Both the position numbers and the translations under genes were made by a program. From positions 128,973 to 192,972 of IMG/VR virus record IMGVR_UViG_3300036766_000359: a stretch of DNA of 64,000 bases; one strand, given 5' to 3'. Below, piece after piece: positions 2,446-48,383 of this stretch. The notes below the pieces were generated by a model that was not told where the DNA came from, made no database searches, and saw nothing but the letters and a program-made list of their open reading frames with translations. Position 1 is the first letter of the stretch. Each line of letters opens with the position of its first letter. Source of the DNA: a virus.

Positions 2446-2661
2446 ATGTGGCACTCATATCAAGTGATAATGACTGATATCGTTGATATCGATCACTACA
2501 AGGGTGCGAAACCACCCCCCGGTAGGTATCGCGTCATGGGTATCACATATCAGCCACAATCCGCATATGGAGAAGTCCAAATAGCCTCCAATCTCTCGCA
2601 CGATGAGGCGAGCCGACTCGCTGCAAATTTGATAGAGATAGACAGGGTGATGCAGTCATGA
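2446..2661 (+). CDS. hypothetical protein with C-terminal tag (IDRVMQS)
   Basis: ORF, ATGA overlap with next gene. Confidence 0.6.
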   Translation: MWHSYQVIMTDIVDIDHYKGAKPPPGRYRVMGITYQPQSAYGEVQIASNLSHDEASRLAANLIEIDRVMQS

Positions 2662-2888
2662 AAGCTGATGATGGAATACACCTTCAGATCAAGAAACTCC
2701 AGAAGCCAGTTCCATGGTGCCAAACGTGGGTAGATGACAAAGGCAAAACCCATGTTCTTACTGAGATGCTTAGCCTCGATGGCGCGTTTGAATTTGCCGA
2801 ATTGGACCAGCTTCCAAGTGGTCGATCCTGGTGCGAAGCCTGCTTGGTCGCTTACGAGCGCATCCACGGGTCAAAAGCAAAACTCTGA
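2658..2888 (+). CDS. hypothetical protein with CxxC
   Basis: ATGA-coupled ORF; WCEAC. Confidence 0.5.
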   Translation: MKADDGIHLQIKKLQKPVPWCQTWVDDKGKTHVLTEMLSLDGAFEFAELDQLPSGRSWCEACLVAYERIHGSKAKL

Positions 2889-3001
2889 GGTATACTATAT
2901 ACTCAGCTCAATACTATCATAATTTTGGCTCGCCCAGTCGAAAATTCGTAAATTGTTGAAGAAATCGTGTCGCCATTTCTCGTCGTCGATGACTAAGATA
3001 T

Positions 3002-3145
3002 TCACGACCACTCCCGGAGTTGGCGAGCGTCCTTGGGACGCCGTGCACGTCGGTCGCGCATCACACCGCCTTTACGCTTGGACATGAGCATACCGAGCAT
3101 CAGTGTGTTGCGTGGGACAGCTCGCTTCTTTGTCTTCTTGGTCAT
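3002..3145 (-). CDS. 47-aa highly basic peptide, copy 1
   Basis: MTKKTKKRAVPRNTLMLGMLMSKRKGGVMRDRRARRPKDARQLREWS; promoter motif at 3153-3177; paralog at 12626-12769. Confidence 0.7.
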   Translation of the reverse strand: MTKKTKKRAVPRNTLMLGMLMSKRKGGVMRDRRARRPKDARQLREWS

Positions 3146-3660
3146 GTTGGTTGTACTTCGTTGATTCACCAATCTGCGCGACTGACCAACACATTCTGGT
3201 TCCCGCCCCTCACTCGCGTGAGGGGCGGGACCGTTCGTCAGCCGATCAGAAGGACGAGATCAGTCCGTCACCGAAGTGAAGGGGAGACGGCTCCTCGCCC
3301 TCGGACTCATCCGGCAGCATGTTGACGTACGGTGCGGTGGTTTGCACGTCGTCGTCGCACGGTCCGCATCGAACGTTGAAACGATTCAGATTCTCGAATT
3401 CGCCAAGGTCAAAGTGGTTCATCTTGTTTCCTCCATCCGCCCATACGTGGTGAGATCGATAACTTCCGGCCCGCTTGAGCTTTTTAGATAAGTTATCGCA
3501 AAGCTCCGCGATCTTCTTTTGTCGTAGATTTCTAAAAAAGTGCAGTACCGCAAAGTGGAGGGGGCCAGTGCCTTGCAAAGGCTTCGTAAATCCGTCGTTT
3601 TGCTGAGTACCACAAAGTGGAGGGGGCCAGTGCCCTTTCGCAAGGCACCATTGCCAGTTC

Positions 3661-3685
3661 GGAGATCGGTTGCGTCGACGCGTAC
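3661..3685 (+). promoter_or_regulatory. promoter-like motif (third of tandem copies 3524, 3586, 3661)
   Basis: GGAGAT-N14-CGTAC. Confidence 0.7.
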
Positions 3686-3825
3686 GGGTGGTGTGAGGCG
3701 GGACGGGACGCGAGGCAATGATGCAGCGCAAAACGGTCCGCAGATCACGGCCCTCCGGCAGTACGGAGGGTGGGAGGCGAGGCGGGCAGGCCGAGTTTCT
3801 CACAACCCAACCACAGGAGCACATC

Positions 3826-4182
3826 ATGGCAAATCTCTATCCCTTCGTCACCAAGTCTCAGATCAAGGCGCGTCTCGACGAGTCCCCCGCATACCGCTGC
3901 GAAGCGATGCTGATCCTCTACGCCTTGCAGACGGCGTACGAGCAGGACACGCGCAGCACCCGCGACAAGAATCGTCAGGGCTTCATGTCCTCGCACGCCG
4001 TCAACGGATCGCGGGTGGCCTTGAAGATCAAGTCGGGCGAGGAACTCTCCCCCGAAGACTGGGAACACGTCAGCCGCATTGCTCCGCGCTACACCCGCCA
4101 ACTGGCGGTCTACTTCAGGGCGCAGATGCTCCTGGAACAACCCGAGCTGCAGGCAGTCGCCAAGCTCTTCAGCGCGGGCTGA
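3826..4182 (+). CDS. uncharacterised phage protein, paralog A2
   Basis: AGGAG RBS; similar to A1 and A3. Confidence 0.8.
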   Translation: MANLYPFVTKSQIKARLDESPAYRCEAMLILYALQTAYEQDTRSTRDKNRQGFMSSHAVNGSRVALKIKSGEELSPEDWEHVSRIAPRYTRQLAVYFRAQMLLEQPELQAVAKLFSAG

Positions 4183-4195
4183 GCGCAGGGCACCC

Positions 4196-4221
4196 GGCCC
4201 CCGTCCGAAAGGGCGGGGGCC
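4196..4221 (+). terminator. GC-rich hairpin after A2
   Basis: GGCCCCCGTCC-GAAA-GGGCGGGGGCC. Confidence 0.6.
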
Positions 4222-6626: not shown

Positions 6627-7439
6627 TCATGACTCCATTATCTTCTGCACTTGGGCTACTTTCTGTGATTCTTCGAAGTCTTCGCGGCGCACGAACATGA
6701 GAGAGGACTTGTTTCGTTTCAAAAACTTGACTAGATCATCAAGATCATCAGGATCAATTGACATGCATTCGAGCATGGTATCCGGATTAACGTCGAGCAA
6801 GCCTGGCGTTTTAGACAAAAAATCCCGCAACTTCTCGCGAAATTTTAACGCTTCTTTGTTCGTGTTTATCCCGGAAAACTGACCCACAATCTGATCGGCG
6901 TCAAGCAACGATTTTTGCCAAGCTGCCTTCCATTCTTTGTCGAGATAGTCAAGTCGTTCTGACAACTGCTCATTGAACACACCAGAAATACCTGAGTCGT
7001 CTGGGGTTAGACTTGAACTACTAACCCCATCAAGCATGTATGAAATACCGTATGATGAGAAAGATAAATAGAGTTGTTGCGGATGTTGCGGATGTGTATG
7101 CGTCCATCGGTAGAAAAATTTTTCTCCTCTCACTTTGAAAAATTTTTCCTCCCAACTGATTTTTCCGTCCAGAACGACGTGTAGACGATTTACTGTGGTG
7201 ATCAGGTTTTGAGAATAGGGAGAGCAAACCTTCAACACACGGGGAGGGCTGATTTTCAGTTTGGAGTTGATAAGAAAGTGCCACGACTGAAGAGTCGCCT
7301 GCCTCATTTTCTTAATATACTCTTGCTGAAGAGCTGCCTGATTGAGCTTTGTTCTGCGATTGTCGGGAGTACACGACTTCTTGAAGGCATCGCTGTCCCG
7401 AAGCTTGTCGATTGCGTCTTCGACGAGTTTATAATCCAT
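6627..7439 (-). CDS. hypothetical protein with C-terminal tag (VQKIMES)
   Basis: long ORF. Confidence 0.7.
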   Translation of the reverse strand: MDYKLVEDAIDKLRDSDAFKKSCTPDNRRTKLNQAALQQEYIKKMRQATLQSWHFLINSKLKISPPRVLKVCSPYSQNLITTVNRLHVVLDGKISWEEKFFKVRGEKFFYRWTHTHPQHPQQLYLSFSSYGISYMLDGVSSSSLTPDDSGISGVFNEQLSERLDYLDKEWKAAWQKSLLDADQIVGQFSGINTNKEALKFREKLRDFLSKTPGLLDVNPDTMLECMSIDPDDLDDLVKFLKRNKSSLMFVRREDFEESQKVAQVQKIMES

Positions 7440-7441
7440 CG

Positions 7442-7780
7442 CTACCGCGCATCGTAAACCGCCGAGTACCAGCAAGTGCACTGTTCGGCGTACAGCCCAA
7501 GTTGTTCCAGGCGGGTGTTCATCCGGTCGAACGCTCCGTATTGCTCGTAATCGAGGTTGAAGTATCGCGCCTGGTCGCCACCATCGTGGACCACGATCAA
7601 CACGGCTCCCTGGCCGTAGTCCTCACCACGGTCCGACCACTCCTCGGGCGTGTAGAAAGCCTTCCCGCCACCACCCGATGGGTTGGCAAGCTCGGCTGTC
7701 ATCAAGGCCACGATCGCTTCCGCCGCTTGCTGACCCTGTGCATTCAGGTTGTTCGGAATGTTGAAGTCTTGGTTGTCCAT
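7442..7780 (-). CDS. hypothetical phage protein
   Basis: GGAG RBS; GC3-rich codons. Confidence 0.65.
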   Translation of the reverse strand: MDNQDFNIPNNLNAQGQQAAEAIVALMTAELANPSGGGGKAFYTPEEWSDRGEDYGQGAVLIVVHDGGDQARYFNLDYEQYGAFDRMNTRLEQLGLYAEQCTCWYSAVYDAR

Positions 7781-11863: not shown

Positions 11864-12280
11864 CTAGCTCGACATGATTGAGTCCGCGATTACCATCCCA
11901 CAGTTCGGGTTTACCTCGTGCTCAGTCATGGCCTCATTCCACGTGGATTCTCGGCTCATCTTCATCTGTCGAAAACACTTCTTGCAGATGGCTTCGACTT
12001 CGTCGTCCGCAAAGACGAGGGTAGACTTCAGTTCCCATTCATGGGTTTCATAACCCTCGGTCTTCGGAGAAGTCTCAGAATTCAGGTCGAGCCCTTTCTC
12101 CGCCAGCATGCCGTCAAGAATCGACATGAAGGGGTCTACGTCAACGTTCTCGGCCGCTTTCCCAATGAGGTGAGAAAGCGGGTCTGCTTCCTCTACAGGC
12201 TGCACTTCCGAACCGAGCATTTCATCTAGTTGGTTCTTCATCACGACTCCATAATTTTCAGGACCATTTGAGCTTGACAA
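11864..12280 (-). CDS. HxW..CxxC..C protein with tag (ADSIMSS)
   Basis: HEWELK...ICKKC...PNC. Confidence 0.6.
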   Translation of the reverse strand: MSSSNGPENYGVVMKNQLDEMLGSEVQPVEEADPLSHLIGKAAENVDVDPFMSILDGMLAEKGLDLNSETSPKTEGYETHEWELKSTLVFADDEVEAICKKCFRQMKMSRESTWNEAMTEHEVNPNCGMVIADSIMSS

Positions 12281-12426
12281 TCTGCCAGAATACCGATCTT
12301 GCGATAAAAGCTAGCACCGCGTGGTTTCATGGGACCATAATAATGGGTTTTACAATTCTTACATATCCACGCTGCAGTCTTCGCCTGGAAATTGAAATAA
12401 ACGTACTCCCATTCATGATTCTTCAT
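12241..12426 (-). CDS. HxW..CxxC..C small protein with tag (VLKIMES)
   Basis: NHEW...WICKNC...ADC. Confidence 0.65.
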   Translation of the reverse strand: MKNHEWEYVYFNFQAKTAAWICKNCKTHYYGPMKPRGASFYRKIGILADCQAQMVLKIMES

Positions 12427-12629
12427 GATTCCATCACTCCAGCAACCAGCATGGCGTTACAGTCTGCCGCATCTGGTGAAGTTTCAAAGAGGTTAAATGG
12501 CACAGCATTTTTGGTTTTATGGTCAAGTACGAGACGAATCCCGCAACGCTGACACTGGTATACGTAAGCGTCCCCCTCGTGGTACGGACCGCTAGGTTTT
12601 ATGTCCGGGAATGAATGCGAGTGTTTCAC
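12423..12629 (-). CDS. small CxxC protein with tag (VAGVMES)
   Basis: YQCQRCG...ADC; ATGA coupling. Confidence 0.65.
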   Translation of the reverse strand: MKHSHSFPDIKPSGPYHEGDAYVYQCQRCGIRLVLDHKTKNAVPFNLFETSPDAADCNAMLVAGVMES

Positions 12630-13165: not shown

Positions 13166-13822
13166 ATGGCACGAAAATCAGACGCAAAGACTTCTAGCTA
13201 CGACAGAATCTTCGACGCGATCACCCGGTCTCCTCGGTGGAGGTCGTACATGGAGTCAATCCGTACCGACTTCGAGAAAGTCGGCATACTTGAGTACACC
13301 TTTAACCACCACTCAGTATACGAGAATGCAACAAACACCAACTATGTTGTTGAGGCAAGCTTTCACATCGGACCTGTCTTGGATGTGAAAGTTTCCTTCG
13401 ACGAAGACTCCGCCCTGTTCGCTGATGCTGTCAGCGCAAACCAGATTGACTGGTCGATAAATAAGTTCTTTGCCGACGAAAAAAGGATGGACGGGGTCCT
13501 CGAGGGTCTCTTCGGTACCAAAGGGTACCCGACGTTCAACTGCACACTCGACAACGCCAAGAAGAAGTGGTCTGACTTCGCCAAGAAACGAATCTCTGAC
13601 GAACTTCATCCACTGAAGGATGCGTTCCATTTGCACGTCTCCGAACAGAAGGAAAGCATCATGGCTTCTGAAGGATTCATTAGGGACAAGCAACGCTACT
13701 ACGACCTTCTCGTCATAAACGACATTCGGGAAGTGGTCCAGAAGTTCTACAAGAAGGTCAGTCCTGAAGTCATCAAGGAAGCGTTGGACAACGTTATCGT
13801 CCACGACATATGTGACTCTTAG
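13166..13822 (+). CDS. hypothetical protein with tag variant (VHDICDS)
   Basis: promoter motif 13120-13144, GGAGG RBS. Confidence 0.7.
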   Translation: MARKSDAKTSSYDRIFDAITRSPRWRSYMESIRTDFEKVGILEYTFNHHSVYENATNTNYVVEASFHIGPVLDVKVSFDEDSALFADAVSANQIDWSINKFFADEKRMDGVLEGLFGTKGYPTFNCTLDNAKKKWSDFAKKRISDELHPLKDAFHLHVSEQKESIMASEGFIRDKQRYYDLLVINDIREVVQKFYKKVSPEVIKEALDNVIVHDICDS

Positions 13823-14223: not shown

Positions 14224-14424
14224 ATGACGTCGCATTCTTGGCGAAAATGGCGTGACGATGGTGATGGGGTCATTATGCTAGACCACATCTGTGATAGATG
14301 TGGTATCGTAAAAGGTAATTTTATGTATTATAACATGCCCGAATCCAATCCGGTTTCTTTAATATCAGAAGACAGCGAACCCGACTGTGATTTGATGATT
14401 GTCAAAAGAATCATGGCCACCTGA
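14224..14424 (+). CDS. HxW..CxxC..C small protein with tag variant (VKRIMAT)
   Basis: SHSW...HICDRCG...PDC. Confidence 0.6.
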   Translation: MTSHSWRKWRDDGDGVIMLDHICDRCGIVKGNFMYYNMPESNPVSLISEDSEPDCDLMIVKRIMAT

Positions 14425-14469: not shown

Positions 14470-14494
14470 GTAAGTCTGCGAGTTGTCGGCGTAC
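14470..14494 (+). promoter_or_regulatory. promoter-like motif upstream of AAA+ ATPase
   Basis: GTAAGT-N14-CGTAC. Confidence 0.7.
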
Positions 14495-14536
14495 GGGTGG
14501 GGAGGCAAGCGCGGTGCTTGCCACGGAGGTGACGAT

Positions 14537-15643
14537 ATGCTGACCGACGTTTTCGAGATCGAACAGGCAACCTACAAGCGGGTACTCTCGTTCAACATCC
14601 GCTCTGGCGGGAACGTGATCATCCTGGGCCAAGCTGGCACAGGCAAGACGGAGATCGCGCAAGCGGTCTGTGGAGAAGAAGGGTTTGAGTACATCTACTT
14701 GAACCTGTCCGTTCTGGAGGCACCTGACCTCGTCGGTTTGCCGATCATCGCGGCAAACAACACTGTTGACTACGCCAGCCCGAAGTTCCTTCCTCGGATG
14801 GACATCACCCCGAAGCCGATCGTCCTGATTGTCGATGAGATCGACAAAGCCAAGCCCGAGCTTCAGAACCCCTTGCTGGAGCTTTTCCAGTTCCATTCCA
14901 TCAACGGGACCAAGCTCAACATCAAGGCGATCATCGCCACGGGCAATCTGCCTGACGAGGGGGCGTTCAGCCAGCCCATCTCACACGCCCTCACCAACCG
15001 GTGCAAGGTGTACCGCCTGACGCACTCCTTCGAGGCGTGGCGCGAGTGGGCTCAAAACGACTCGCTCAACGCGCTGGTCATTGGCTTCCTGAGCAAGAAC
15101 CAGGAGTACCTCAGCCGAGCGGCGGTCGAGGGAGATCCCACGGCGTACTGTCGCTGCAGCCCGCGCTCTTGGGCAATGGCCGCCAACGACCTGGACAAGA
15201 CGTCCAGCCAAGACACGGTGGAGTTTCAGACACTCCTCGTCAGCGGTCGCGTCGGGATGGGCGCTGCGGTGAAATTCCGGGTGTGGCTCGACCACTATCG
15301 CCACGTGGAGCCCATCATCGAGAAGCTCGTCGAGAAGGGCGAGAAGCCTTCCATCAACGACATGTCGATCGATCGACAGCTCGTTTGCGCAATTGCCGCT
15401 GTGGCAGCCGTCGCCAACGAATGCAAGAGGGAGCTGAAAGGCGAGGAGCGCGTGAAGCAGGGCGAGCGCGTGACGAAGATTGCCAAGAACGTCTTCAGTT
15501 GGGTGAAGCTCCTCCCATCTGAGTTCCAGATTGGCGCGGTCAAGTCGGCACTCAACATGAAGATGATCCAGGAATTCAAGCTGACCAACGTTCAGGAAGT
15601 GATGGACACCTATCTCACGGTACGTAAGGCCATGAAGGACTGA
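14537..15643 (+). CDS. MoxR-like AAA+ ATPase (AAA_5 type)
   Basis: Walker A GQAGTGKT, Walker B LIVDEID, ATGN sensor, SPRSW motif; GGAGG RBS. Confidence 0.85.
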   Translation: MLTDVFEIEQATYKRVLSFNIRSGGNVIILGQAGTGKTEIAQAVCGEEGFEYIYLNLSVLEAPDLVGLPIIAANNTVDYASPKFLPRMDITPKPIVLIVDEIDKAKPELQNPLLELFQFHSINGTKLNIKAIIATGNLPDEGAFSQPISHALTNRCKVYRLTHSFEAWREWAQNDSLNALVIGFLSKNQEYLSRAAVEGDPTAYCRCSPRSWAMAANDLDKTSSQDTVEFQTLLVSGRVGMGAAVKFRVWLDHYRHVEPIIEKLVEKGEKPSINDMSIDRQLVCAIAAVAAVANECKRELKGEERVKQGERVTKIAKNVFSWVKLLPSEFQIGAVKSALNMKMIQEFKLTNVQEVMDTYLTVRKAMKD

Positions 15644-15887: not shown

Positions 15888-15941
15888 CTTAAGCTGCCGG
15901 AGTGGAGATCGGCGGGTTATCGGCGTACTGTGAGTGGACAA

Positions 15942-16448
15942 ATGAGCGTACGCACCCGAAAGATGAAGAAGGAGAAGCTGCGCAAGGTTGCGCACGGTAA
16001 GGACTACGAAAGTCTCTTGTCCGTGTTTTATCGATACAATATGTTTGACTCATGGGAACCGAATCAGTTCATGGAGTTCGTCCGTCTGTATCGCTATTTC
16101 CCGTGTGATAGCACAGGCAGCGCGTTCGTTAGTTCAGTTCAACGCGACCGCGAACAGTTTTGTCTTGATGATGTTTCTGAACGTCTCAAGGCACTGGTTC
16201 GTAGCAAGCGCTTTTTAGAAAAGTGTGGCTATTATTTGCCATTTGGCACCACCAACATCATGTACATCGTTGATTCGTGGAACGTGATGGATCTCATGAA
16301 GTTGGTGACTTTCTGTCAAAAAAGCCGTGATGCTAATTCCGTGTTAGCATTGATCCGTTCGGTACAAATTTTTGGACACAAAATTCGCTTCCAGGAAGTA
16401 AAAGCGGCCATGGGTATGATCAAGATTCAAAAGATCATGGAATCATGA
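15942..16448 (+). CDS. hypothetical protein with tag (IQKIMES)
   Basis: promoter motif 15904-15928. Confidence 0.65.
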   Translation: MSVRTRKMKKEKLRKVAHGKDYESLLSVFYRYNMFDSWEPNQFMEFVRLYRYFPCDSTGSAFVSSVQRDREQFCLDDVSERLKALVRSKRFLEKCGYYLPFGTTNIMYIVDSWNVMDLMKLVTFCQKSRDANSVLALIRSVQIFGHKIRFQEVKAAMGMIKIQKIMES

Positions 16449-16633
16449 AACCACATAATTGGGTCAAAGCTCGTACTCGTAGTCTCAAGGTTGACGGTTT
16501 CGCCGGTATCTATTACCGGCGATGTACTGAGTGTGGAATCGAAGTTTCATACGATGATGATGGTAAATGGCCGTTTGAACCTTATAATGATGACTGCGAC
16601 GAGCAGATCCTTCGGGTAATACATGAGTCATAA
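16445..16633 (+). CDS. HxW..CxxC..C small protein with tag (LRVIHES)
   Basis: PHNW...RCTECG...DDC. Confidence 0.65.
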   Translation: MKPHNWVKARTRSLKVDGFAGIYYRRCTECGIEVSYDDDGKWPFEPYNDDCDEQILRVIHES

Positions 16634-16967
16634 ATCCGCAGATATGGTGACTTATTCACCAAAGGGTCACAAGGATATTTATACACACTGCACTCATGCA
16701 GATGCTTTGAAGTATAACAGAAGATACGTTGAATCAATGAGTACTGTGACTATTCTTGGTTATTGGGATGATTTCATCTGCCCATCATACGATATTTTCA
16801 GAGAAGACGGAGTTTCACACTTGAAAAGTGATGAAGGAAACTGGGATGTTTTCTTTAGTAAAATGTACATTTGTCGTATGTCTTCCAGGGATAAAGCCAT
16901 TCAGTCGTTAGCAGCTCTTCGGCATGACCCGAGTCTGGTCGTCATTTTTCAGACTCATGAGTCGTAG
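16623..16967 (+). CDS. hypothetical protein with tag (IFQTHES)
   Basis: coupled ORF. Confidence 0.6.
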   Translation: MSHKSADMVTYSPKGHKDIYTHCTHADALKYNRRYVESMSTVTILGYWDDFICPSYDIFREDGVSHLKSDEGNWDVFFSKMYICRMSSRDKAIQSLAALRHDPSLVVIFQTHES

Positions 16968-17230
16968 CTTTCATGTTGTCACGCGTACGGGAGGCGGATA
17001 GATGAAGGAGGTCATGAAGTGAAGCTCTATGGCTCAAAGCGCAAGTCTTGTCAGACGTGCAAATATGGGTGCTGCGGATCCAAGGAAGCGAAGCTCCACC
17101 GGTTCGCGGGTGCGGGTGCCGTGCGGAAGGCAGCCCGTCACCGGGCGCGGCGGAAGGCACGGGAGGAAGCGACGCAGGAGGCGACAGAGTGAGCCGGAAT
17201 CTGGCCATCGACTGGTTCTGGCCAGTCGAA

Positions 17231-17428
17231 ATGACTAAACTTGAGTCGCGTGATGCCCGTGTGCGTGAGGCACAAGACCCAAATACGCCTGTCAGCGACC
17301 TCATACTGTTGTCTAATGATAACGAACCGGGCATCCGTTGGGCGATATCAGAAAACCCGAGTACCCCTCCAGAAATTAAGGCCTACTTAAAAGCACTTGA
17401 AATTGCATACGACGTGATGGAGAGTTAG
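17231..17428 (+). CDS. short LRV/HEAT-like repeat protein with tag (AYDVMES)
   Basis: DPNTPVSDLILLSNDNEPGIRWAISENPSTPPE repeat. Confidence 0.65.
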   Translation: MTKLESRDARVREAQDPNTPVSDLILLSNDNEPGIRWAISENPSTPPEIKAYLKALEIAYDVMES

Positions 17429-18082: not shown

Positions 18083-19549
18083 ATGGCAACAGCAGACCGA
18101 TCGATCGCAGCAACCATCACCCGTCTCAAGGATCCAGAGAACGTGGCGAGCAGCCCTCGCCAGTACATGGAACTTTGCGACAAAATCTCGTCCTGCATGA
18201 CGAGGCTTTTCCAGTTCCCCAAGAACGGGGGCAACCCGTTCTTGTTCGCCCTCACCGGCCCGAAGCCACACTTCCTCGTCAGGAAGCTTCACGGACAGGA
18301 TATCAAGACAGCGGCCACCGACGGAAAGAATTTCTACTGGAACCCTGAGTTTCTTGAGTCGATGAGCCCTCAAGAGATCCAGACGGTCATGTCCCATGAG
18401 AGCTACCACGTTCTCTTTTTCCACTGCTCGAAGGACCGGGCGGCTGGGAAGAAGCCGCATGAATGGAATATCGCCGTGGACTACATCGTCAACGGCGTCA
18501 TTGAGCATGACCACGAAAAGAGCGGACGATCGGCTTCTTTCAAGCTGTGGGGCGGCGCGATCGGATCGCCAATCTCGTTCGACGATTACATCGCCTGGAT
18601 TGCGGGCAAGATTGATGATCTGCCGCAACACGGTTGCTTCGCAGACCCGACCATGCACGGTCGGTCTCCGGAGTCCATCTACGGCGATATCATCCAGGCC
18701 CAACTCAGCAGCCCACGTCGTTGCAAAGAGAACGCGGGTGGCTGTGGAGCACTGTCCATCGACCCGAAGACCGGGGTCTCTGTAATCGATCAGCCCTGGG
18801 ACGCGGACGCCTGCCAGAAGTGCGGCGCAAAGCCCAACCAGGGAACCGGCCCTGGGTCTCTCGACTCACATGTTCCCACCGACCTGACAAAGGATGAGGT
18901 CATGGGGGAGATGATGAAGGCTGCAGAGCAAGCCGCAGCGACTGGTCGTGGAACGGCCCCTGCTGAAATAGAGGCAGCCCTGGCTGAACTCAAGGCTCCG
19001 CAGCTCCGCCCGAGCGATATCATCCGACAGGCATTCTTTCGCAAGGCAATCGACACCGGCAACAAGAACGACTGGAAGCGCCTTCGACGCCGCCAGCTCG
19101 CAATGACCCCTCGCCAGTTCCTCCCACGCAAGCACGAACATCTGCCCAAATGGGTGGTCTGCCTTGACACGTCTGGCTCAATGTCCGACAAGGACATTGC
19201 AAACGGCCTCAAGGAGATGCAGGCCGTCCCGCAGAATTCAGAGGGATGGGTGATCCCTTGCGATGCGGTCCCATACTGGGACCGGAAGACCCTCGTGCGG
19301 AACTCATCCGACCTCAAGCGGACCAAGGTCGTTGGACGTGGCGGCACGGTCTTCGACCAATTCTTCGCGGAGCTTCCAGAGAAGATTGGGAGGGACCTTG
19401 ACATTGTGGTCATCATCAGTGATGGTGATTGCGGGACTATTCCGATGAATCTCCACCCGCGTTGCGACGTGCTCTGGATTATCACGAACAAGCGTGACTT
19501 CAAGCCCACGTTCGGACGGGTCGTTCAACTCAGTCCGTCTCGCGCCTAA
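18083..19549 (+). CDS. DUF2201-type metallopeptidase-like + VWA domain protein
   Basis: HESYH (HExxH) then N.A.D; MIDAS VVCLDTSGSMS; GRGGT; promoter motif 18037-18061. Confidence 0.85.
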   Translation: MATADRSIAATITRLKDPENVASSPRQYMELCDKISSCMTRLFQFPKNGGNPFLFALTGPKPHFLVRKLHGQDIKTAATDGKNFYWNPEFLESMSPQEIQTVMSHESYHVLFFHCSKDRAAGKKPHEWNIAVDYIVNGVIEHDHEKSGRSASFKLWGGAIGSPISFDDYIAWIAGKIDDLPQHGCFADPTMHGRSPESIYGDIIQAQLSSPRRCKENAGGCGALSIDPKTGVSVIDQPWDADACQKCGAKPNQGTGPGSLDSHVPTDLTKDEVMGEMMKAAEQAAATGRGTAPAEIEAALAELKAPQLRPSDIIRQAFFRKAIDTGNKNDWKRLRRRQLAMTPRQFLPRKHEHLPKWVVCLDTSGSMSDKDIANGLKEMQAVPQNSEGWVIPCDAVPYWDRKTLVRNSSDLKRTKVVGRGGTVFDQFFAELPEKIGRDLDIVVIISDGDCGTIPMNLHPRCDVLWIITNKRDFKPTFGRVVQLSPSRA

Positions 19550-19699: not shown

Positions 19700-19975
19700 A
19701 TGTCGATAATCATCATGACGATGGCTGGAATTTTGGGCGGAGTGGTGCTGTACCCTTTGGCCGTGAGTCTATCAGTAAGCTTCGTCTGCGGCCCTTGTAG
19801 AGCAGCGGCAGCGTGGCTTAACGAACATGATGGGGAGCGCTCTGCGTGTTATGTGATGCTGTTCGGACTAAAGTTGATTGCTTTCGTGGAAGGCGGTCTG
19901 GACACCCCGGCTGTTCATCTTCAAGAACGCTTTAGAAAACGTATAGAGAACCTGGAAACACATGAAAAGTTTTGA
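19700..19975 (+). CDS. small membrane protein
   Basis: hydrophobic N-terminus; promoter motif 19658-19682. Confidence 0.55.
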   Translation: MSIIIMTMAGILGGVVLYPLAVSLSVSFVCGPCRAAAAWLNEHDGERSACYVMLFGLKLIAFVEGGLDTPAVHLQERFRKRIENLETHEKF

Positions 19976-20279
19976 GGATATCGATACCACAACTGGCACT
20001 TGGTCAGTCCCAGAAAAGAGAATGGAGAAGAATCGCCAAAACTTGCTTGGATTCTTTAGTGATATCGATAACTACGGTCGCGTTCGGAAAAGTGCCGTCG
20101 AGACATTTGAACCCGATGTATTCATCAAAATAATGAGACTTTTCCTTTATCACGAGAATGAGATGAGTCACATACAAGGTTTCGTAAATCGTTTCAGGAA
20201 ATCCGCAAACGAGATAACCGATGACAACATTCGTGAAGTTCTAAAACAACTGGCCGTAAATGATGTAATGGATTCTTAG
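19962..20279 (+). CDS. hypothetical protein with tag (VNDVMDS)
   Basis: overlapping co-oriented ORF. Confidence 0.6.
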   Translation: MKSFEDIDTTTGTWSVPEKRMEKNRQNLLGFFSDIDNYGRVRKSAVETFEPDVFIKIMRLFLYHENEMSHIQGFVNRFRKSANEITDDNIREVLKQLAVNDVMDS

Positions 20280-22350: not shown

Positions 22351-22354
22351 GCGG

Positions 22355-23623: not shown

Positions 23624-23658
23624 ACCCGAACGTCGTGTGCGTACTCGTGGGCGGAGGC

Positions 23659-31803: not shown

Positions 31804-31865
31804 ATCAAACATTGACACCGTAAATGGCCGCGTCGTGTCAGTACGCGCTGGTGGGAGGACAAATC

Positions 31866-32450
31866 GTGGACATGGGTAAAGATATCCGTCATATGCAGCA
31901 AATGTGCGATCTTCTGGAATTCCACGCACGTGCTGGGCATGTCTCCTCTCGCTATTACGAGAGACATGCCCAGCTGAGCCTGCGACCGCACTCAACGTAT
32001 GGTAGTCAAAACCGAGGTATCGCGAGAGATCCGAACACTCCTATTGACGTCTTGGTCAAGTTATCCACTGACCAGGACCCGAATGTTCGTATCGAAGTAG
32101 CAAAATTCGCGTTCTCACGTCCCTGCGGTAACGAAGCATTCAGTGAGACTCTCGTTAAAACCCTGGTCAATATGTTGTCGATCGACCGAGACCCGTCTGT
32201 TCGTTATCATGCAGCCGCAAATCCCTGCATACCTGTCGAGACCTTGACCGAGTTATCTGCTTCCAAAGATGCATACGTTCGTCAAGGCGTGGCGATAAAC
32301 CCGAGCACGCCTGTCGATATCTTGAGCACGTTGTCCAACGATAACGACGCATACGTTCGTATTCACGTGTCCGCAAACTCCAAAACTCCTTATGAAGTCT
32401 TACTTTATCTAGAGGCACTTGAAGCTATATACGACGTGACGGATAGTTGA
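31866..32450 (+). CDS. LRV/HEAT-like repeat protein with tag (IYDVTDS)
   Basis: repeats L..D....VR..VA.NP.TP; promoter motif 31820-31844; start uncertain. Confidence 0.7.
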   Translation: MDMGKDIRHMQQMCDLLEFHARAGHVSSRYYERHAQLSLRPHSTYGSQNRGIARDPNTPIDVLVKLSTDQDPNVRIEVAKFAFSRPCGNEAFSETLVKTLVNMLSIDRDPSVRYHAAANPCIPVETLTELSASKDAYVRQGVAINPSTPVDILSTLSNDNDAYVRIHVSANSKTPYEVLLYLEALEAIYDVTDS

Positions 32451-33669: not shown

Positions 33670-34068
33670 TTGAGCGACTGCTCGAGTTTGAGCGACAAAT
33701 CAGACGAGCAGTTGATTGTCTTAATCATGACATTCAAGAGTCAGATTATCGAGACGAAAGGGACATGGCACGCGTGCGTTTTTCAAACGCAGTTAAAAAT
33801 GCAGTCACCAAACTCCCATAAATGGACGTATTCAGTATACCGGGACGTCCTCAGCCCGAGGAACATGCATATGCGTGTTCATTGCCCCCACTGTGAGACT
33901 ACAGTACTACACGAGTATGCATACGAGTTGTTACAGACAACTCATGAAAGACACCAGGGGCGCGAAGACATCTTCGCAGAAGTATGCCGAACACTTGAAA
34001 GTAAATTTACTTCGGATTGTGAAGAAGCCCGTTTACTTAATGTGTGTGACCAGATACACAGTTCGTGA
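33670..34068 (+). CDS. tandem paralog 1, HxW..HCxxC..C with tag (CDQIHSS)
   Basis: near-identical 3' DNA in three consecutive ORFs. Confidence 0.65.
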   Translation: MSDCSSLSDKSDEQLIVLIMTFKSQIIETKGTWHACVFQTQLKMQSPNSHKWTYSVYRDVLSPRNMHMRVHCPHCETTVLHEYAYELLQTTHERHQGREDIFAEVCRTLESKFTSDCEEARLLNVCDQIHSS

Positions 34069-34328
34069 CTTCATCCACACATGAATGGGTATACTCGGTG
34101 TATCGGGACGTTCTTTCCACGGTATCCACGCACATGCGTGTTCATTGTGACAAGTGCGGGACTGTAACACTACATGATCTTGACGAGCAAGTCTATGTCC
34201 ACACGACGGATGCACACACGAAATATTTAATCTTCAAAAAAGTATGCCGAACACTTGAAAGTAAATTTACTTCGGATTGTGAAGAAGCCCGTTTACTTAA
34301 CATCTGTGACCAAATACATAGTTCATGA
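34065..34328 (+). CDS. tandem paralog 2 with tag (CDQIHSS)
   Basis: as above. Confidence 0.7.
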   Translation: MTSSTHEWVYSVYRDVLSTVSTHMRVHCDKCGTVTLHDLDEQVYVHTTDAHTKYLIFKKVCRTLESKFTSDCEEARLLNICDQIHSS

Positions 34329-34576
34329 CTTCATCCACACATGAATGGACGTATTCAACGTATCACGAGCTTTCCAAGAAGTCAGGATTTGTCGACGTCC
34401 ACTGCGCCAAGTGTGGAACCACGATGCGACACCAGTACATTGACGAAGTTTCTGAAATCAATCCTGATTATTTCAAAAACATCTTTGAAGATGTATGTCT
34501 TTATCTTGAAAATCAATTTACGGATTGTGAAGAAGCCCGTTTACTTAACATGTGTGACCAGATACACAGTTCATGA
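34325..34576 (+). CDS. tandem paralog 3 with tag (CDQIHSS)
   Basis: as above. Confidence 0.7.
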   Translation: MTSSTHEWTYSTYHELSKKSGFVDVHCAKCGTTMRHQYIDEVSEINPDYFKNIFEDVCLYLENQFTDCEEARLLNMCDQIHSS

Positions 34577-34581: not shown

Positions 34582-35238
34582 TCACGAATCCATCACCATA
34601 TTCACTTCGAACAGGTCCCACGCTTCCTTGTAAACATCGTCGGGAATGTCGTCACGTTGCAAAATTCCTTCCAAAGCTTTCCTACCATCTCTATGGGTCC
34701 AGAAGGTGTTTTCTAGACACCACTCCGCGCAAGCTTCTTTTGAATTCAGTACATCCATAACCACCGGGGGCGCGAGATTTGGCACTGTGCCGAGCGTTTG
34801 CTTATTACGTGCCAGAGTATGGACACTGAACCAAACGGCATTCTTATAGACTTTATCAAGCCTGAGCTTAACCATCTTTACGAGAACGCTTCGAGGGGTT
34901 GGGACTCGGACGAAGTTCCTATTCTTCATGGCAATACAGGCTTTGGTGAACTCCGTCGCGTCACTCAACAAGAAATGTCTCTCGCCAACTCTTATTTGCC
35001 TTGATGCGAATCCGCTTCCGCTTCCGCTAGAAGAACTCTGGAACGAGATGATTTGATATCCATAACAGGGAAGGTTATTTTCAACAAGTGACTTTAGATA
35101 CCCTTCACAAAAAGCCTTCGCTTGGTGAGTACACACCACTCCCGGAAGACCAGCTATCTCATCAAAAAATTTATTTTTGACGGGGGCCATTTCGTACGCT
35201 TCTCCGAAGAGCTTAGAGATGGCTTCGGAATGACTCAT
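34582..35238 (-). CDS. hypothetical protein with tag (VNMVMDS), paralog of 26263
   Basis: shared motifs. Confidence 0.7.
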   Translation of the reverse strand: MSHSEAISKLFGEAYEMAPVKNKFFDEIAGLPGVVCTHQAKAFCEGYLKSLVENNLPCYGYQIISFQSSSSGSGSGFASRQIRVGERHFLLSDATEFTKACIAMKNRNFVRVPTPRSVLVKMVKLRLDKVYKNAVWFSVHTLARNKQTLGTVPNLAPPVVMDVLNSKEACAEWCLENTFWTHRDGRKALEGILQRDDIPDDVYKEAWDLFEVNMVMDS

Positions 35239-35534
35239 ACGGCAACCCTTACGGTTTCTACTGGACCCCCACACGCAGGGCAACAGTCGTAAGACCCATT
35301 ATCAGATAAATCGGCGTTCCACCCACAGCGCGTCGGTTTGACGGCCAAAATGTGTTTACACGGCTTTTTGCCGAACCTGAACGCCGAGCACGTGCACGTC
35401 CAGTCGTATTGGGTGTCGCTGGAGTGTGACCACCCGTAGGAGACCTGATAATCGCCTTTAGACCCGCGAACACTAGCTTCGAAACTCGTGTTCGTCTGGC
35501 AAACCGTTCTGTTTTCGACTGTGAGATCTGGCAT
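35235..35534 (-). CDS. SWIM zinc-finger protein
   Basis: WTCTCSAF...PCKHI plus CPACG; promoter motif 35548-35572 (-). Confidence 0.75.
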   Translation of the reverse strand: MPDLTVENRTVCQTNTSFEASVRGSKGDYQVSYGWSHSSDTQYDWTCTCSAFRFGKKPCKHILAVKPTRCGWNADLSDNGSYDCCPACGGPVETVRVAV

Positions 35535-37713: not shown

Positions 37714-38046
37714 ATGGGTTCAAATCGACATTTAGCCACGGATCCTAACACCCCTCCTAAAATCCTTGCAAAGTTATCTGGTGACACGGATGTGGTTACT
37801 CGTTGGAATGTGGCCTCGAATACCAACACATCTCTCGAAATTTTGATCAAGTTAGCTAGTGATACGGATGAATGGGTTCGTCAGAATGTAGCCCGGAACC
37901 AAAATACTCCTCTCGAAACTTTGACCCGGTTGTCTGATTCGGATGTATGGGTTCGTCGGAGTGTATCTCTAAACCCCAGCACTTCTCCCGAAACCCTGAG
38001 TCAACTTGACGCACTTGAAGCCGCGTATTTGGTGACGAATAGTTAG
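37714..38046 (+). CDS. LRV/HEAT-like repeat protein with tag (AYLVTNS)
   Basis: 24-aa repeats. Confidence 0.75.
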   Translation: MGSNRHLATDPNTPPKILAKLSGDTDVVTRWNVASNTNTSLEILIKLASDTDEWVRQNVARNQNTPLETLTRLSDSDVWVRRSVSLNPSTSPETLSQLDALEAAYLVTNS

Positions 38047-38048: not shown

Positions 38049-38579
38049 GTGAACAATCAGATGTCTAAACTAAGTTTTGCACCAAGTTATACTAATCGTG
38101 AAGATTTATCCCGAGATCCTCAAACTTCTCCAGAAATCCTAACACAGTTATCCGATGACATAAATCCGAGTATTCGCTATTTTGTGGCCGTGAATCCCAA
38201 CACACCCCCCGAAACTTTGACCAAGTTATCCATTGATTCGGATTACATTGTTCGTCGGCGTGTGGCCTCGAACCCTAATACTTCTCCCGAAACCTTAAAC
38301 CAATTTGCCGATGACACGAATGCGAATGTTCGTCGGAATGTGGCCTCGAATCCCAACACTCCTTCTGAAATTTTAACCAAGTTATCCAATGATGCGGATT
38401 ATATTGTTCGTCGGAATGTGGCCTCGAATCCCAACACACCCCCCGAAATTTTAACCAAGTTATCCAATGACTCGGATTATATTGTTCGTCGGCGTGTGGC
38501 CTCGAATCCCAACACTCCTTCTGAAACCCTAATTCAACTTGACGCACTTGAAGCCGCATTCATGGTGACTAATAGTTGA
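38049..38579 (+). CDS. LRV/HEAT-like repeat protein with tag (AFMVTNS)
   Basis: about six 24-aa repeats, near-identical 72-bp DNA units. Confidence 0.8.
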   Translation: MNNQMSKLSFAPSYTNREDLSRDPQTSPEILTQLSDDINPSIRYFVAVNPNTPPETLTKLSIDSDYIVRRRVASNPNTSPETLNQFADDTNANVRRNVASNPNTPSEILTKLSNDADYIVRRNVASNPNTPPEILTKLSNDSDYIVRRRVASNPNTPSETLIQLDALEAAFMVTNS

Positions 38580-39117: not shown

Positions 39118-39495
39118 ATGTCGCGAAAAGGTAAAGCCAAGTTAGCTAATGACACGGATCTGACTATTCGTCGGCGTATGGCCGACAGTCCAAGTACATC
39201 TTCCAAAATCCTAACCCAGTTAGCTAGTGACACGGATGAATTGGTTCGTCAGCTTGTGGCCTCGAATTCCAACACACCTTCTGAAACTTTGACCCGGTTG
39301 TCTAATGACACAGATAGAGCTGTTCGTCGGTGTGTAGCCTCGAATCCTAACACTTCTCCTGAAATCTTAACTCAACTTGCTTATGATACAAATAGAAATG
39401 TTCGTCGGCATGTATCTCAGAACCCTAACACACCCCCCGAAACCTTAGTTAAACTTGATGCACTTGAAGCCGCGTTCATGGTAACGAATAGTTAA
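39118..39495 (+). CDS. LRV/HEAT-like repeat protein with tag (AFMVTNS)
   Basis: 24-aa repeats. Confidence 0.75.
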
Positions 39496-40424: not shown

Positions 40425-40469
40425 ACGGTGCAACATGCTTCATGGGAGCTGTCGTCAGGGACGTGTCAT

Positions 40470-41039
40470 ATGAGTGTCGATCCGAAAACCCCTGAAGATT
40501 ACTTTGACGCGGGTGTTCGTGCTCGCTATGACATTGCCCATAATCCTCACACATCCCCATCAATTTTGGCTCAATTGTATACTGACGTTAATCCTAATAT
40601 TCGTTTAGCGGTGTCAGTGAACCCGAGTACGCCAATTGATATTTTAGTTAAAATGTCAGTAGGCGAACCCACCATGATTCGTCAGGGTGCAATTGGCGAA
40701 CCCACCATGATTCGTCAGGGTGTAGCCGCAAATCCGAGTGCACCTATCAGTCTCTTGACCGAGTTATCAATCGACAAGGACAATATCGTTCGTCAAAGTG
40801 TAGCATGGAACCCAAATACTCCTGTCGATGTCTTAATCCGATTATCGGACGATGTCGATCAATACGTTCGTCGCGGTGTGGCCAAGAATCCAAATACTCC
40901 TGTCGATGTCTTAATCCGGTTATCTGGTGACGTCAGTCGAGGGGTTCGTCAGGGTTTGGAAAAGAACCCCAATACACCTCCCCAAATCTTGCTTCAGTTA
41001 GAAGCGCTCGAAATCGCCTATCAGGTAACAGAAAGTTAA
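40470..41039 (+). CDS. LRV/HEAT-like repeat protein with tag (AYQVTES)
   Basis: 24-aa repeats; internal GEPTMIRQG duplication. Confidence 0.75.
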   Translation: MSVDPKTPEDYFDAGVRARYDIAHNPHTSPSILAQLYTDVNPNIRLAVSVNPSTPIDILVKMSVGEPTMIRQGAIGEPTMIRQGVAANPSAPISLLTELSIDKDNIVRQSVAWNPNTPVDVLIRLSDDVDQYVRRGVAKNPNTPVDVLIRLSGDVSRGVRQGLEKNPNTPPQILLQLEALEIAYQVTES

Positions 41040-45946: not shown

Positions 45947-45950
45947 AGTC

Positions 45951-46487
45951 ATGGGCGTCACCACTTATCTGCAAACATATTTTGCGATTGAATGTTCTCG
46001 TAGTGCGTTTTTCATCTCTACGGGAACAAATAAGACTGTTTGTCCACTATATGGCATTGAACACGAAGTTAGAAACAATGCTAAATTTTGTGATCAATGT
46101 GGATCCAAAACACTATTGGAAACCACAGAAGAACCAACTGAAGCATTCAAAAATTTTTGCGTTAAATTTAGGTATATTTCACCGGAAAAAGTTTTCATTC
46201 CCCTAATGGAAGGAGATCTTGTATGGTCTTCCTCAACTGGTTCATACAAAATTGGTTGGTATAAACTCCAAGCCGGGACGCATTGTGATACGAAAATCGA
46301 GGATTCCATAATGGGACTTGGAATTCAGTTAAGTAACATATGTTGTGAAAGCGACGTTGCTTCTCGAGTATTGGCCTATTCATCTGAAGACTTCGTGAAA
46401 CTTACAAAACTATTGCAAGAAATTGCTACAGTTTTCGGGTTTATTACACCTCCGAAACTTTATACTCAAGTGTATATTAGTTATTAA
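45951..46487 (+). CDS. hypothetical protein with Zn ribbon
   Basis: CP...H...KFCDQCG. Confidence 0.6.
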   Translation: MGVTTYLQTYFAIECSRSAFFISTGTNKTVCPLYGIEHEVRNNAKFCDQCGSKTLLETTEEPTEAFKNFCVKFRYISPEKVFIPLMEGDLVWSSSTGSYKIGWYKLQAGTHCDTKIEDSIMGLGIQLSNICCESDVASRVLAYSSEDFVKLTKLLQEIATVFGFITPPKLYTQVYISY

Positions 46488-46500
46488 TGATTGGGACCAA

Positions 46501-46821
46501 ATGGCTAAGCAGACGATCAAAGTTATGTGCCCCTCTTGTGGCGGAACAGGTGTTTACTGCGGCTTCGCAGAACCTAAGGGTGTAGGCGTAGTGTGCGTGA
46601 AATGTGACGGCACAGGCTGTGCCGATCTTAGCTACGAGCCGTTCACAAAACGTCAGCACAAGATGACCGAGTCGACAAAAGGCGATGCTGGTGCTGGCTG
46701 GGAATCGCTCGACGACGTGATTGCTAGAAATGCTCAGGCGCGCGATCTGGAGAAGAGGGGCCGACGTCTAGCCAGCGCGCGAAACGATTCTGATCTGTCC
46801 AACCGCGCAGTTCTTGGCTGA
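46501..46821 (+). CDS. protein with DnaJ-type CxxCxGxG repeats
   Basis: CPSCGGTG, CVKCDGTG. Confidence 0.6.
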   Translation: MAKQTIKVMCPSCGGTGVYCGFAEPKGVGVVCVKCDGTGCADLSYEPFTKRQHKMTESTKGDAGAGWESLDDVIARNAQARDLEKRGRRLASARNDSDLSNRAVLG

Positions 46822-46842
46822 ACCCGTTGAGGACGTAGTGCC

Positions 46843-47223
46843 ATGAAGTCAACTAAAAGCCTTGCCAACGCTGAGTCGGAAACGCCCGTTCATCCCCCGG
46901 CAATCAATATATGCGCCAACTGCGGTGATATTAAATCAGAACACGATTTTTTCACTAGTATTGAGGGTATATGTATGGGCGGTAATACAACGTTCCTGAG
47001 TTTAGCTGAACATGAGAAAACCATGACCACCTTCCGCCTTCCACACGACCATCGAGTCCCCGATGCAAGCGCACTGGCAGACGCCGCTGAAGCGCTGGGA
47101 AATGTGCGCTCAGAGGACGGCGCACCTATCGTGATGACATGGGCAGAAGTGCTTGAAGCAATCCGCGAACTTCGCGCTGATTACAATCACCTCGTAGAAG
47201 AATTAGCCGGGGAATCAATATGA
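46843..47223 (+). CDS. hypothetical protein
   Basis: ORF track. Confidence 0.5.
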   Translation: MKSTKSLANAESETPVHPPAINICANCGDIKSEHDFFTSIEGICMGGNTTFLSLAEHEKTMTTFRLPHDHRVPDASALADAAEALGNVRSEDGAPIVMTWAEVLEAIRELRADYNHLVEELAGESI

Positions 47224-47654
47224 GTGAATCTGAAACACCCGTGCATCCGCTGCCGACCGACTTCTCGCTGCACTACTCGTACATCGTGAACCAACTCACC
47301 GGCACGTTGCACAAGGCTGAGTTGGAGTTTGCCGCCGCGCTGATCATTAGGTGGCACAAGCTACACAGCAGCGAGACTTGGATCGGATTCTCCCGTGATG
47401 ACATCGCTACGCTGTTCAATCCGGCCAGCCCAGACCCAGGGGTGCTGGAGTACCAAGGCAACCCATTCTGGAAGCCCGACCCGATGGGCTTGGTCGAGAA
47501 GGGTTTCGTGGACGGCTGGGACTACGGGCCAGAGAACGCTCACATGATCGGGCGATTCACCGATAAGTTCTTTGAAGCTGTAGCAAAAGAGTGGACACGA
47601 CGCAGCCCGAGCTGGAGCACGTTAGGTCGCGCAAAGAACAAAGTGGTCACATGA
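47220..47654 (+). CDS. hypothetical protein
   Basis: ATGA coupling. Confidence 0.55.
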   Translation: MSESETPVHPLPTDFSLHYSYIVNQLTGTLHKAELEFAAALIIRWHKLHSSETWIGFSRDDIATLFNPASPDPGVLEYQGNPFWKPDPMGLVEKGFVDGWDYGPENAHMIGRFTDKFFEAVAKEWTRRSPSWSTLGRAKNKVVT

Positions 47655-47888
47655 TGCAAATGATTCGAGATCCGCTGCTTACTTGGTTGCGATCTAAACG
47701 GAACGTTTGGCATGCCGGTAGGTGTGCGAAAAACAGGCACGCTTGGCAGTGGGGCCTAGTACCCGCGTCTGGAATCAAAAGTGACGCGCTCATACGGATG
47801 GATTGGCTTCGCGGTTTTGACGGTCGGATTACTCCCGTGGCGATCTACTCGCGTTGTAAGCATTGCCAGTGTCTAGGAAAGATGCCCA

Positions 47889-48113
47889 ATGATTTGTAGG
47901 AATCACGAGTGGGTACGTTCATCTCGTCCTTCCCGTACGATACTCACCGCGAAAGCAGGACTCCTGATATGGCGTTGGACTTGCCACGAATGTGGTTCTA
48001 AGCTTGAGAAATCTGACACTCATTCCGTTTACCCGGTTGCTCAGGACTGTATCGAACACGACGTTTTGATCAACTGTTCAGAACAAATAATTCGCATAGT
48101 AACGGATTGCTGA
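47889..48113 (+). CDS. HxW..CxxC..C small protein, tag variant (IRIVTDC)
   Basis: NHEW...WTCHECG...INC. Confidence 0.6.
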   Translation: MICRNHEWVRSSRPSRTILTAKAGLLIWRWTCHECGSKLEKSDTHSVYPVAQDCIEHDVLINCSEQIIRIVTDC

Positions 48114-48143
48114 AACAATCTTCGGCGTACTTTATGATTTGGT

Positions 48144-48383
48144 ATGAATATGCCGAACCAAGAAGAGTGGAAGAAACATCTGAAAGTCTTAAAGACCAAG
48201 AGGAATCTTCATACTCGTCAGAATAGACTCATAAAACTCGTTCATCGCGGACGTGATAGGTTTCGTCAAAACAAGAAAGCTCAGTTGGAGTTACGTCGTG
48301 TGGTTTCTCTATGTTTTCGACTTGGGGAAAAACTTCATAATGAACTACAAGAAGAATTTGTCGAAGGGGTGATGGAGTCATGA
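48144..48383 (+). CDS. basic protein with tag (VEGVMES)
   Basis: ORF track. Confidence 0.6.
   Translation: MNMPNQEEWKKHLKVLKTKRNLHTRQNRLIKLVHRGRDRFRQNKKAQLELRRVVSLCFRLGEKLHNELQEEFVEGVMES

Follow-up and report, generated by a model that had tools for sequence, protein, structure and literature searches.

A shared C-terminal peptide on about one fifth of the genes of a huge-phage lineage, probably a docking label on small accessory proteins

Why do so many small, otherwise dissimilar proteins of one phage end in almost the same seven residues? The question is raised by a 64,000-base stretch of viral DNA, here called the window, which represents bases 128973-192972 of a 192,972-base virus record in IMG/VR (G000; completeness about 45%). 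Between 2.3 and 48.4 kb of the window, 33 open reading frames (ORFs) end in the tag hydrophobic-x-x-(V/I)-(M/H/T)-x-S-stop. In this phage and those closest to it, roughly one gene in five is tagged, and nearly all tagged genes encode small proteins without assigned function. Based on sequence comparisons, we propose with moderate confidence that the tag is a portable C-terminal docking or address label read by a shared partner, because it is selected at the protein level, stands exactly at the end, occurs on varied folds, outlives the protein bodies that bear it, comes in mutually exclusive dialects and is confined to one clade.

The tag is strongly enriched at gene ends. A regular expression applied to the stop-to-stop ORFs of the window returned 37 matches, namely the 33 tagged ORFs and four short ones that fit the loose pattern probably by chance and are probably not genes. 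An earlier, sequence-only reading of this DNA had counted at least 35 tagged proteins; all 33 C-termini that it listed were recovered in their places, and the figure of 35 is a generous count of that list. According to a crude codon-usage gene call, 29 of the 245 genes in the 193-kb record are tagged, and the comparison with shuffled C-termini that had been suggested gave a mean of 0.23 tagged genes and a maximum of 3 in 2000 shuffles. Inside the proteins of the record, the pattern occurs at 0.0008 per position. Most tagged genes lie in the window, between 130 and 177 kb of the record, and four others are found elsewhere in it. The consensus is V-x-x-V-M-E-S (type 1), and Ser is the final residue in about 90% of the tags. 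With residues numbered back from the C-terminus, the tag spans roughly two turns of helix, on which positions -8, -7, -4 and -3 make up a hydrophobic stripe surrounded by acidic residues, and the near-invariant terminal Ser bears the free carboxylate. As the same reading had observed for recognisable enzymes, the ligase, AAA+, DUF2201, PurB and TnpB-like proteins of the window all lack the tag.

Selection on the protein, which had likewise been proposed, was borne out when 242 non-identical tagged ORFs of the record and of related phages were pooled and their last eight codons compared. The information content is 0.01-0.17 bits at third codon positions and 0.7-1.8 bits at first and second positions, the terminal Ser is encoded by TCN in 175 cases and by AGY in 46, and the stop codon is TGA in 158, TAA in 43 and TAG in 41. 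Since third positions are uninformative and both Ser codon families and all three stops are in use, the tag is selected at the protein level. Only 76 of the 242 tags end in TCATGA, where an ATGA stop-start overlap joins the next gene, and an explanation by stop-start overlap or by a ribosome site thus fails for most copies. The position of the tag is equally strict. Among the called genes of G001, a complete 436-kb relative with terminal repeats, about 600 genes and a terminase 60% identical to that of the record, the motif was found 66 times at distance 0 from the end, never at 1-30 residues, and 17 times deep inside proteins, the last being roughly chance level. Such exact placement appears to fit a peptide that is read with its free carboxylate, whereas a helix serving folding only would tolerate ragged ends.

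The record represents a tailed phage encoding a large terminase, a portal-like protein, tail fibres, a RecD-like helicase, a ribonucleotide reductase and a PurZ-like enzyme. Its closest kin by terminase similarity are uncultivated huge phages of 240-530 kb, and no cultured phage exceeded 28% identity in the terminase comparison. When 12 kb of window sequence was compared with GenBank phages by megablast, nothing matched, and a search of IMG/VR for relatives with one tagged protein as query found none. In the related phages, the scan of which had been called for, the tag is kept in G001, G004 and G005. A degenerate pattern of 15 bases encoding [V/I]-M-[E/D]-S-stop matches G001 exactly at 78 sites (reversed control, 0), and by the loose motif this genome has 137-140 tagged ORF ends against about five expected, corresponding to about 23% of its genes, with 86 of 134 tagged genes within the first 100 kb. 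Only six tagged genes of the window match G001 in tblastn, yet both phages keep the tag. Further, a homologue of the protein encoded at 26263-26865, 40% identical and from an unrelated assembly, is tagged, as are two of its neighbours. The tag is far better conserved than the protein bodies that bear it. Part of G004 has 20 tags, most of them carrying His at -3; in another three records, of 360-430 kb, 4-18 tags occur within 21 kb.

A sister lineage, consisting of G007 and two fragments (terminase 56% and DUF2201 protein 43% identical), uses another ending. G007 has zero type 1 tags, and 33 of its ORFs end in [T/A/S/V]-x-x-[V/I/L]-[V/I/L]-x-[S/G] (type 2; consensus T-x-x-V-V-E-S). Type 1 and type 2 endings number 31 and 1 in the record analysed here, 137 and 4 in G001, 52 and 3 in G005, 0 and 33 in G007, and 1 and 1 or 0 and 1 in the complete tag-less controls G025 and G014, respectively. 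The homologous family of the protein encoded at 23635-24282 bears whichever dialect its own lineage uses. An unbiased inspection of the C-termini of G025 revealed no enriched ending. Additionally, 27 further terminase relatives were scanned, mostly at 37-45% identity with a few short fragments closer; 26 of them have 0-2 type 1 matches, which is background, and the 27th is G007 with its type 2 tags. A scan for the exact pattern across all of IMG/VR gave multiple matches in this lineage only. A dialect shift across all families of a lineage is predicted by co-evolution with one reader, and that one common partner reads the tag is, in our judgement, quite likely. A separate observation in G007 concerns a 753-residue RecD-like helicase, ending at 73083 on the minus strand, which has a type 2-like tail, whereas its orthologues in the other lineage are untagged; this may be either chance or a rare tagged enzyme.

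The bodies in front of the tag are diverse. The 33 tagged ORFs of the window form 23 BLAST clusters, and profiles unite more of them, giving five to seven zinc-ribbon proteins, four sheet-plus-helix proteins, six with LRV repeats, three tandem paralogues and one pair. The 242 tagged ORFs, with the last 13 residues removed, form 206 BLAST clusters. The tagged proteins had been described as unrelated, which holds for the many folds and clusters and has to be qualified for the roughly 18% that belong to a single zinc-ribbon family and for several paralogue groups in the window. Beyond these small domains, the tag also terminates LRV solenoids and proteins of 200-300 residues. The LRV proteins with a tag are encoded on the plus strand at 17048..17428 (126 residues), 31824..32450 (208 residues, LRV/HEAT repeats), 37714..38046 (110 residues, with Thr at -3 and the Ser encoded by AGT), 38049..38579 (176 residues), 39118..39495 (125 residues) and 40428..41039 (203 residues). 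LRV-containing proteins in the structural module of the same genome are untagged, whereas the small LRV proteins are tagged. Given the 206 clusters, the LRV solenoids, the proteins of 200-300 residues and the untagged LRV proteins, the tag is not a property of any one fold. Among 20 tagged window proteins searched against Pfam, only the six LRV-repeat paralogues were assigned, any other matches being sub-threshold, and none of 134 tagged G001 proteins scanned had a Pfam family, so that the term effector repertoire used in the sequence-only reading was a guess.

The zinc-ribbon family comprises proteins of 60-90 residues in which H4, C27, C30 and C51 are invariant in 40 sequences, with the motif H-x-W ... 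C-x-x-C ... C plus a helix and the final Cys at -12. With four invariant ligands and a three-strand ribbon, this subset of tagged proteins qualifies as zinc-ribbon mini-proteins. The profile of the family still recovers 44 of the 242 tagged ORFs when the tag columns are left out. The family forms 596 clusters in a protein library of 1.84 billion representatives, and among the 150 best-scoring clusters the tag stands at the very end in 96 of 128 small proteins. In the window, members are encoded at 12241..12426 (61 residues) and 12423..12629 (68 residues) on the minus strand, and at 14224..14424 (66 residues, final residue Thr) and 16445..16633 (62 residues, His at -3) on the plus strand, and a related protein of 138 residues with a CxxC ... 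C motif is encoded at 11864..12280 on the minus strand. The AlphaFold2 (AF2) model of the 62-residue protein is folded (predicted local distance difference test, pLDDT, 83.5), with three strands and a helix at residues 51-61 that is the tag. The sheet-plus-helix family, A3, is encoded on the plus strand at 2296..2661 (121 residues, recognised by its tag and by an iterative hidden Markov model search), 28345..28542 (65 residues), 28543..28746 (67 residues) and 29243..29455 (70 residues). The model of the 67-residue member is also folded (pLDDT 78), with three strands and a helix at residues 48-66 ending in the tag. In both modelled mini-domains a single helix follows the three strands, and its last two turns are the tag. 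A Foldseek search of the Protein Data Bank (PDB) with the zinc-ribbon model returned generic zinc ribbons only, at E-values of at least 0.28, and the best VIA-align match of the 28543-28746 model, an MbtH-like protein (Z 5.2, 56 of 67 residues), is too weak for kinship.

Some zinc-ribbon members depart from the usual ending. In the tandem fusions P0005 and P0012, the tag of the first unit is internal and runs directly into the next H-x-W, so that the tag helix can, rarely, exist without a free end. Other members, at 47889-48113 of the window and at G001 and G004 loci such as L115:17134-17346, have endings such as [V/L]-Q-[D/E/N]-[E/A] or V-T-D-C, which could represent a further minor dialect or decayed tags.

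If the tag is read, a candidate for the reader lies among the tagged genes themselves. An untagged AAA+ ATPase, a candidate part of the reader, is encoded at 14483..15643 on the plus strand, its true start probably being at residue 19. It matches the Pfam families AAA, AAA_5 and AAA_2 about equally, with weak similarity to the D2 domain of ClpA/ClpC and no clear assignment to MoxR. The likewise untagged DUF2201 protein, encoded at 18083..19549 on the plus strand (Pfam PF13203 and PF09967), combines a zincin-like metallopeptidase domain (HExxH) with a vWA domain that has a DxSxS metal ion-dependent adhesion site (MIDAS), and both motifs are invariant in five orthologues. The two genes sit within the tagged arrays of every tag-bearing genome and were not found in five complete tag-less relatives. 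Additionally, a promoter-like motif, G[TGC]ARRY-N15-GTAY, occurs in 52 copies at window positions 1-36000, compared with 6 expected from shuffles (for example at 13120, 18037, 22661, 24289 and 25330), and often ends 19-22 nucleotides upstream of the starts of the DUF2201, DUF6011 and several tagged genes. It stands about 20 nucleotides ahead of both candidate-reader genes and of many tagged ones and, judged by its sequence, appears to define a single transcription class to which the tagged genes belong together with this pair. We name the AAA+ and vWA-zincin (DUF2201) pair as the partner only tentatively and with low confidence. In the general reading, a single partner recognises the tag across a numerous and rapidly evolving collection of small accessory proteins. 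If this pair were that partner, the acidic C-terminus would be bound at the MIDAS site of the vWA domain or at the zincin site, after which the ATPase would remodel, release or help to clip the tagged protein.

Several observations weigh against this assignment or against the docking label itself. All tag-bearing genomes belong to one lineage, and 47 genes of G001 are, like the candidate reader, present in tag-bearing and absent from tag-less genomes; phyletic profiling singles out no reader, because the tag-less relatives are too distant. Genes for BRCT and DUF6011 proteins and the ligase are likewise conserved close by. A homologous adjacent ATPase/DUF2201 pair (gp24/gp25-like) occurs in N4-like phages, and the early proteins of one phage examined in this regard, Pseudomonas phage PA26, share no C-terminus. 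Since no function is known for any of the tagged proteins, the cargo does not point to a destination. Further, in the zinc-ribbon proteins the tag helix begins at the last zinc ligand, the third Cys, and the models suggest that conservation of the tag in the two mini-domain families could be partly structural.

Two other ideas about the neighbourhood were dropped. Some 12 residues before its end (window 15560-15600), the AAA+ protein has a conserved, tag-like internal segment, [V/I]-x-x-[V/F/L]-M-x-[T/E]-Y, which was considered as a pseudo-substrate and rejected, as it does not track the dialect switch of the sister lineage. A stand-alone single BRCT-domain protein, encoded at 21342-21722 (Pfam E-value 1.7e-10), is conserved in both tag lineages, where its gene neighbours those for AAA+ and DUF2201; it was discarded as a phosphopeptide reader of the tag, since there is no residue three places past the terminal Ser and Thr at -7 occurs in one dialect only. 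NCBIfam searches with the conserved untagged neighbour proteins gave nothing useful, and literature searches on DUF2201 found nothing relevant. DUF2201 homologues occur in 456 phage records, at about 25% identity over 85% of the protein. In PA26 (L153 13801-16630), the N4 gp25-like DUF2201/vWA homologue adjoins the gp24-like ATPase; in RefSeq this homologue is annotated as an HNH endonuclease, a label that looks wrong.

Other explanations of the shared ending differ in how well they account for its position, its distribution over folds and its dialects. A purely structural role, in which the tag would be the capping helix of diversifying small domains on an old scaffold of three strands plus a helix and no reader would exist, draws on the two AF2 models, both with that architecture, and on the size of the zinc-ribbon family, whose helix starts at the invariant third Cys. 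It is nevertheless unlikely, as a folding helix needs neither an invariant last Ser nor an exact end, the tag is also carried by solenoids and larger proteins, and independent folding constraints would not give a dialect that is uniform within each lineage (33 against 0 in G007, 137 against 4 in G001). A signal in the nucleic acid at gene ends, be it stop-start coupling, a ribosome-binding site or a cassette recombination site, can practically be dismissed: TGA is indeed the commonest stop and the TCATGA endings would suit it, but two thirds of the tags have no overlap, third positions are free, Ser is written with TCN and AGY, Val and Ile interchange at -7 and -4, any GGAG within the tag lies only 2 nucleotides from the next ATG, and the identity of the tag DNA is too low for homologous exchange. 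The sequence-only reading had itself named such an overlap as the finding that could explain the tag away, and the overlap does not do so wholly.

Two further explanations concern where the label would lead. AAA+ proteases are well known to recognise C-terminal degrons, as in the case of ssrA, and a degron would be one possible destination within the generic reading of the tag. Here it would pass early accessory proteins on to an AAA+ protease of the host or to the phage AAA+/zincin pair for timed removal, which would agree with the early or accessory look of the tagged genes (small, arrayed and, in G001, largely in the first 100 kb), with their shared promoter-like motif and with the ATPase and zincin peptidase encoded among them. 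Known bacterial C-degrons have non-polar tails, however, and that of the tag is a polar Glu-Ser; moreover, no PDZ or tail-specific protease is encoded in five tag-bearing genomes (PDZ_2 matches in none of these five and in all 14 control genomes). We rate the degron as rather unlikely. Loading into the capsid, for ejection into the next host, is highly doubtful. The heads of huge phages could accommodate numerous internal proteins, there are known terminal address peptides that target HK97-fold shells, and a few tagged ORFs do lie in the structural region, but nearly all tagged genes are found outside the structural module, among ligase, exonuclease, BRCT and HNH genes whose promoter-like motif they share. 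Further, some 137 different cargo species would be unprecedented, and neither a processing site nor a scaffold-like copy of the tag was seen. Of the earlier proposal of a sorting or docking signal, the signal is supported by the terminal position, the varied folds and the concerted dialects, while its destination (capsid, compartment, adaptor or protease) is conjectural; we rank regulated turnover or remodelling ahead of capsid loading, and the latter ahead of a purely structural role.

Returning to the docking label, a broader and more speculative version would be proteome-wide addressing, in which hypervariable, binder-like proteins plug via the tag into the phage AAA+/vWA-zincin machine, either as adaptors or for scheduled clearance. 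As adaptors, interchangeable tagged proteins would bring host targets for remodelling or proteolysis, in a manner that may be likened to viral F-box adaptor families, here in a bacterial virus. Such a system would comprise one fifth to one quarter of the genes, including zinc ribbons, LRV solenoids and others, with tag and reader co-evolving into dialects. We think that this version is improbable as a whole.

The closest analogue that we found is the peptide-processing modules of vWA-MoxR conflict systems (Kaur, Burroughs, Iyer, Aravind 2020, PMC7159879). That comparative work proposes that vWA domains bind a substrate peptide on behalf of their MoxR ATPase, and it describes zincin peptidases that act on small, rapidly diverging proteins whose C-terminal peptides, of the FxSxx-COOH type, are conserved. 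As in those modules, the tagged proteins here are small, diverge fast and are conserved only at the extreme C-terminus, and a zincin-like metallopeptidase, a vWA domain and an AAA+ ATPase are encoded nearby, although the ATPase is not clearly a MoxR. The two differ in that the modules use an FxSxx, RxD or acidic-run motif in place of the V-x-x-V-M-E-S or T-x-x-V-V-E-S found here, have one precursor compared with tens to more than 100 tagged genes per genome, and belong to bacterial defence islands, whereas the present genes are those of a phage with zincin and vWA fused in one protein. General scans of the window proteins turned up no radical-SAM/SPASM, VMAP or STAND partner.

Other known terminal signals resemble the tag in part. 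Encapsulin cargo-loading and microcompartment encapsulation peptides dock cargo to one shell protein and, like the tag, are short C-terminal peptides or amphipathic helices on unrelated proteins; there is no likeness in sequence, the tagged genes are not beside the capsid gene, and the tagged candidates are far more numerous and far smaller. The capsid targeting sequence of T4 likewise serves as a terminal address peptide common to unrelated phage proteins, but it is N-terminal, removed by the head protease and carried by late proteins, whereas the tag is at the C-terminus (distance 0), belongs to genes of an accessory region that looks early and has no cleavage motif. In ssrA-type degrons the last residues and the free carboxylate are recognised by an AAA+ machine or adaptor; they end in non-polar residues (such as L-A-A for ClpX/ClpA), compared with acidic-Ser here, and are not a genome-wide encoded family. 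PDZ-binding motifs and substrates of tail-specific proteases have a hydrophobic last residue in place of Ser, and a host PDZ protein is a possible reader. Poxvirus ankyrin-repeat proteins with a PRANC/F-box-like element are likewise variable viral binders built on repeat solenoids with one conserved C-terminal docking element. That element, however, is a domain of about 40 residues recruiting a host ubiquitin ligase in eukaryotes, and the tag is a peptide of 7-13 residues in a bacterial virus, so the likeness is an analogy only. The gp24/gp25-like genes of N4 are a case of homology, the adjacent AAA+ and DUF2201 genes corresponding to those here.

The remaining tagged ORFs of the window complete this picture. 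Those on the minus strand are 6627..7481 (284 residues, no Pfam family) and 34582..35283 (233 residues), the latter a paralogue of the 200-residue protein at 26263..26865 on the plus strand. All others are on the plus strand. The tandem paralogues follow one another at 33670..34068 (132 residues), 34065..34328 (87 residues) and 34325..34576 (83 residues). A variant tag with Cys at -3 ends the 218-residue protein at 13166..13822, and Thr at -3 is found in the 56-residue protein at 28136..28306, whose paralogue at 28858-29031 is untagged, having lost the hydrophobic pattern of the tag and kept the final Ser. Further tagged ORFs lie at 15930..16448 (172 residues), 16623..16967 (114 residues), 19962..20279 (105 residues), 20338..20742 (134 residues), 22707..23477 (256 residues), 23474..23623 (49 residues), 23635..24282 (215 residues, the protein with a sister-lineage homologue in the other dialect), 29713..30063 (116 residues) and 48144..48383 (79 residues), the last in the window. 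An ESM Atlas features search with a tagged protein of 256 residues gave no usable match. The 88-residue ORF at 22312..22578 is less sure to be a gene, as the crude gene call missed it.

In our literature searches we found no description of this C-terminal tag, in agreement with the sequence-only reading, which had not recognised it as a described signal. The principle of a terminal tag common to many proteins and recognised by one partner is known; the scale seen here, up to one quarter of a viral proteome, is unusual. Most genes of huge phages are without known function, and one peptide marks 20-25% of them here as one functional class, so that an identified reader would give hundreds of proteins a common fate at once. 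If the reader were the AAA+/vWA-zincin pair, this would provide the first function for the N4 gp24/gp25-like pair, which is widespread in cultured phages. The dialects further predict that exchanging them should break recognition, and a short, portable tag specific to a lineage could, together with the reader dedicated to it, be used as an orthogonal tool for targeting or degradation.

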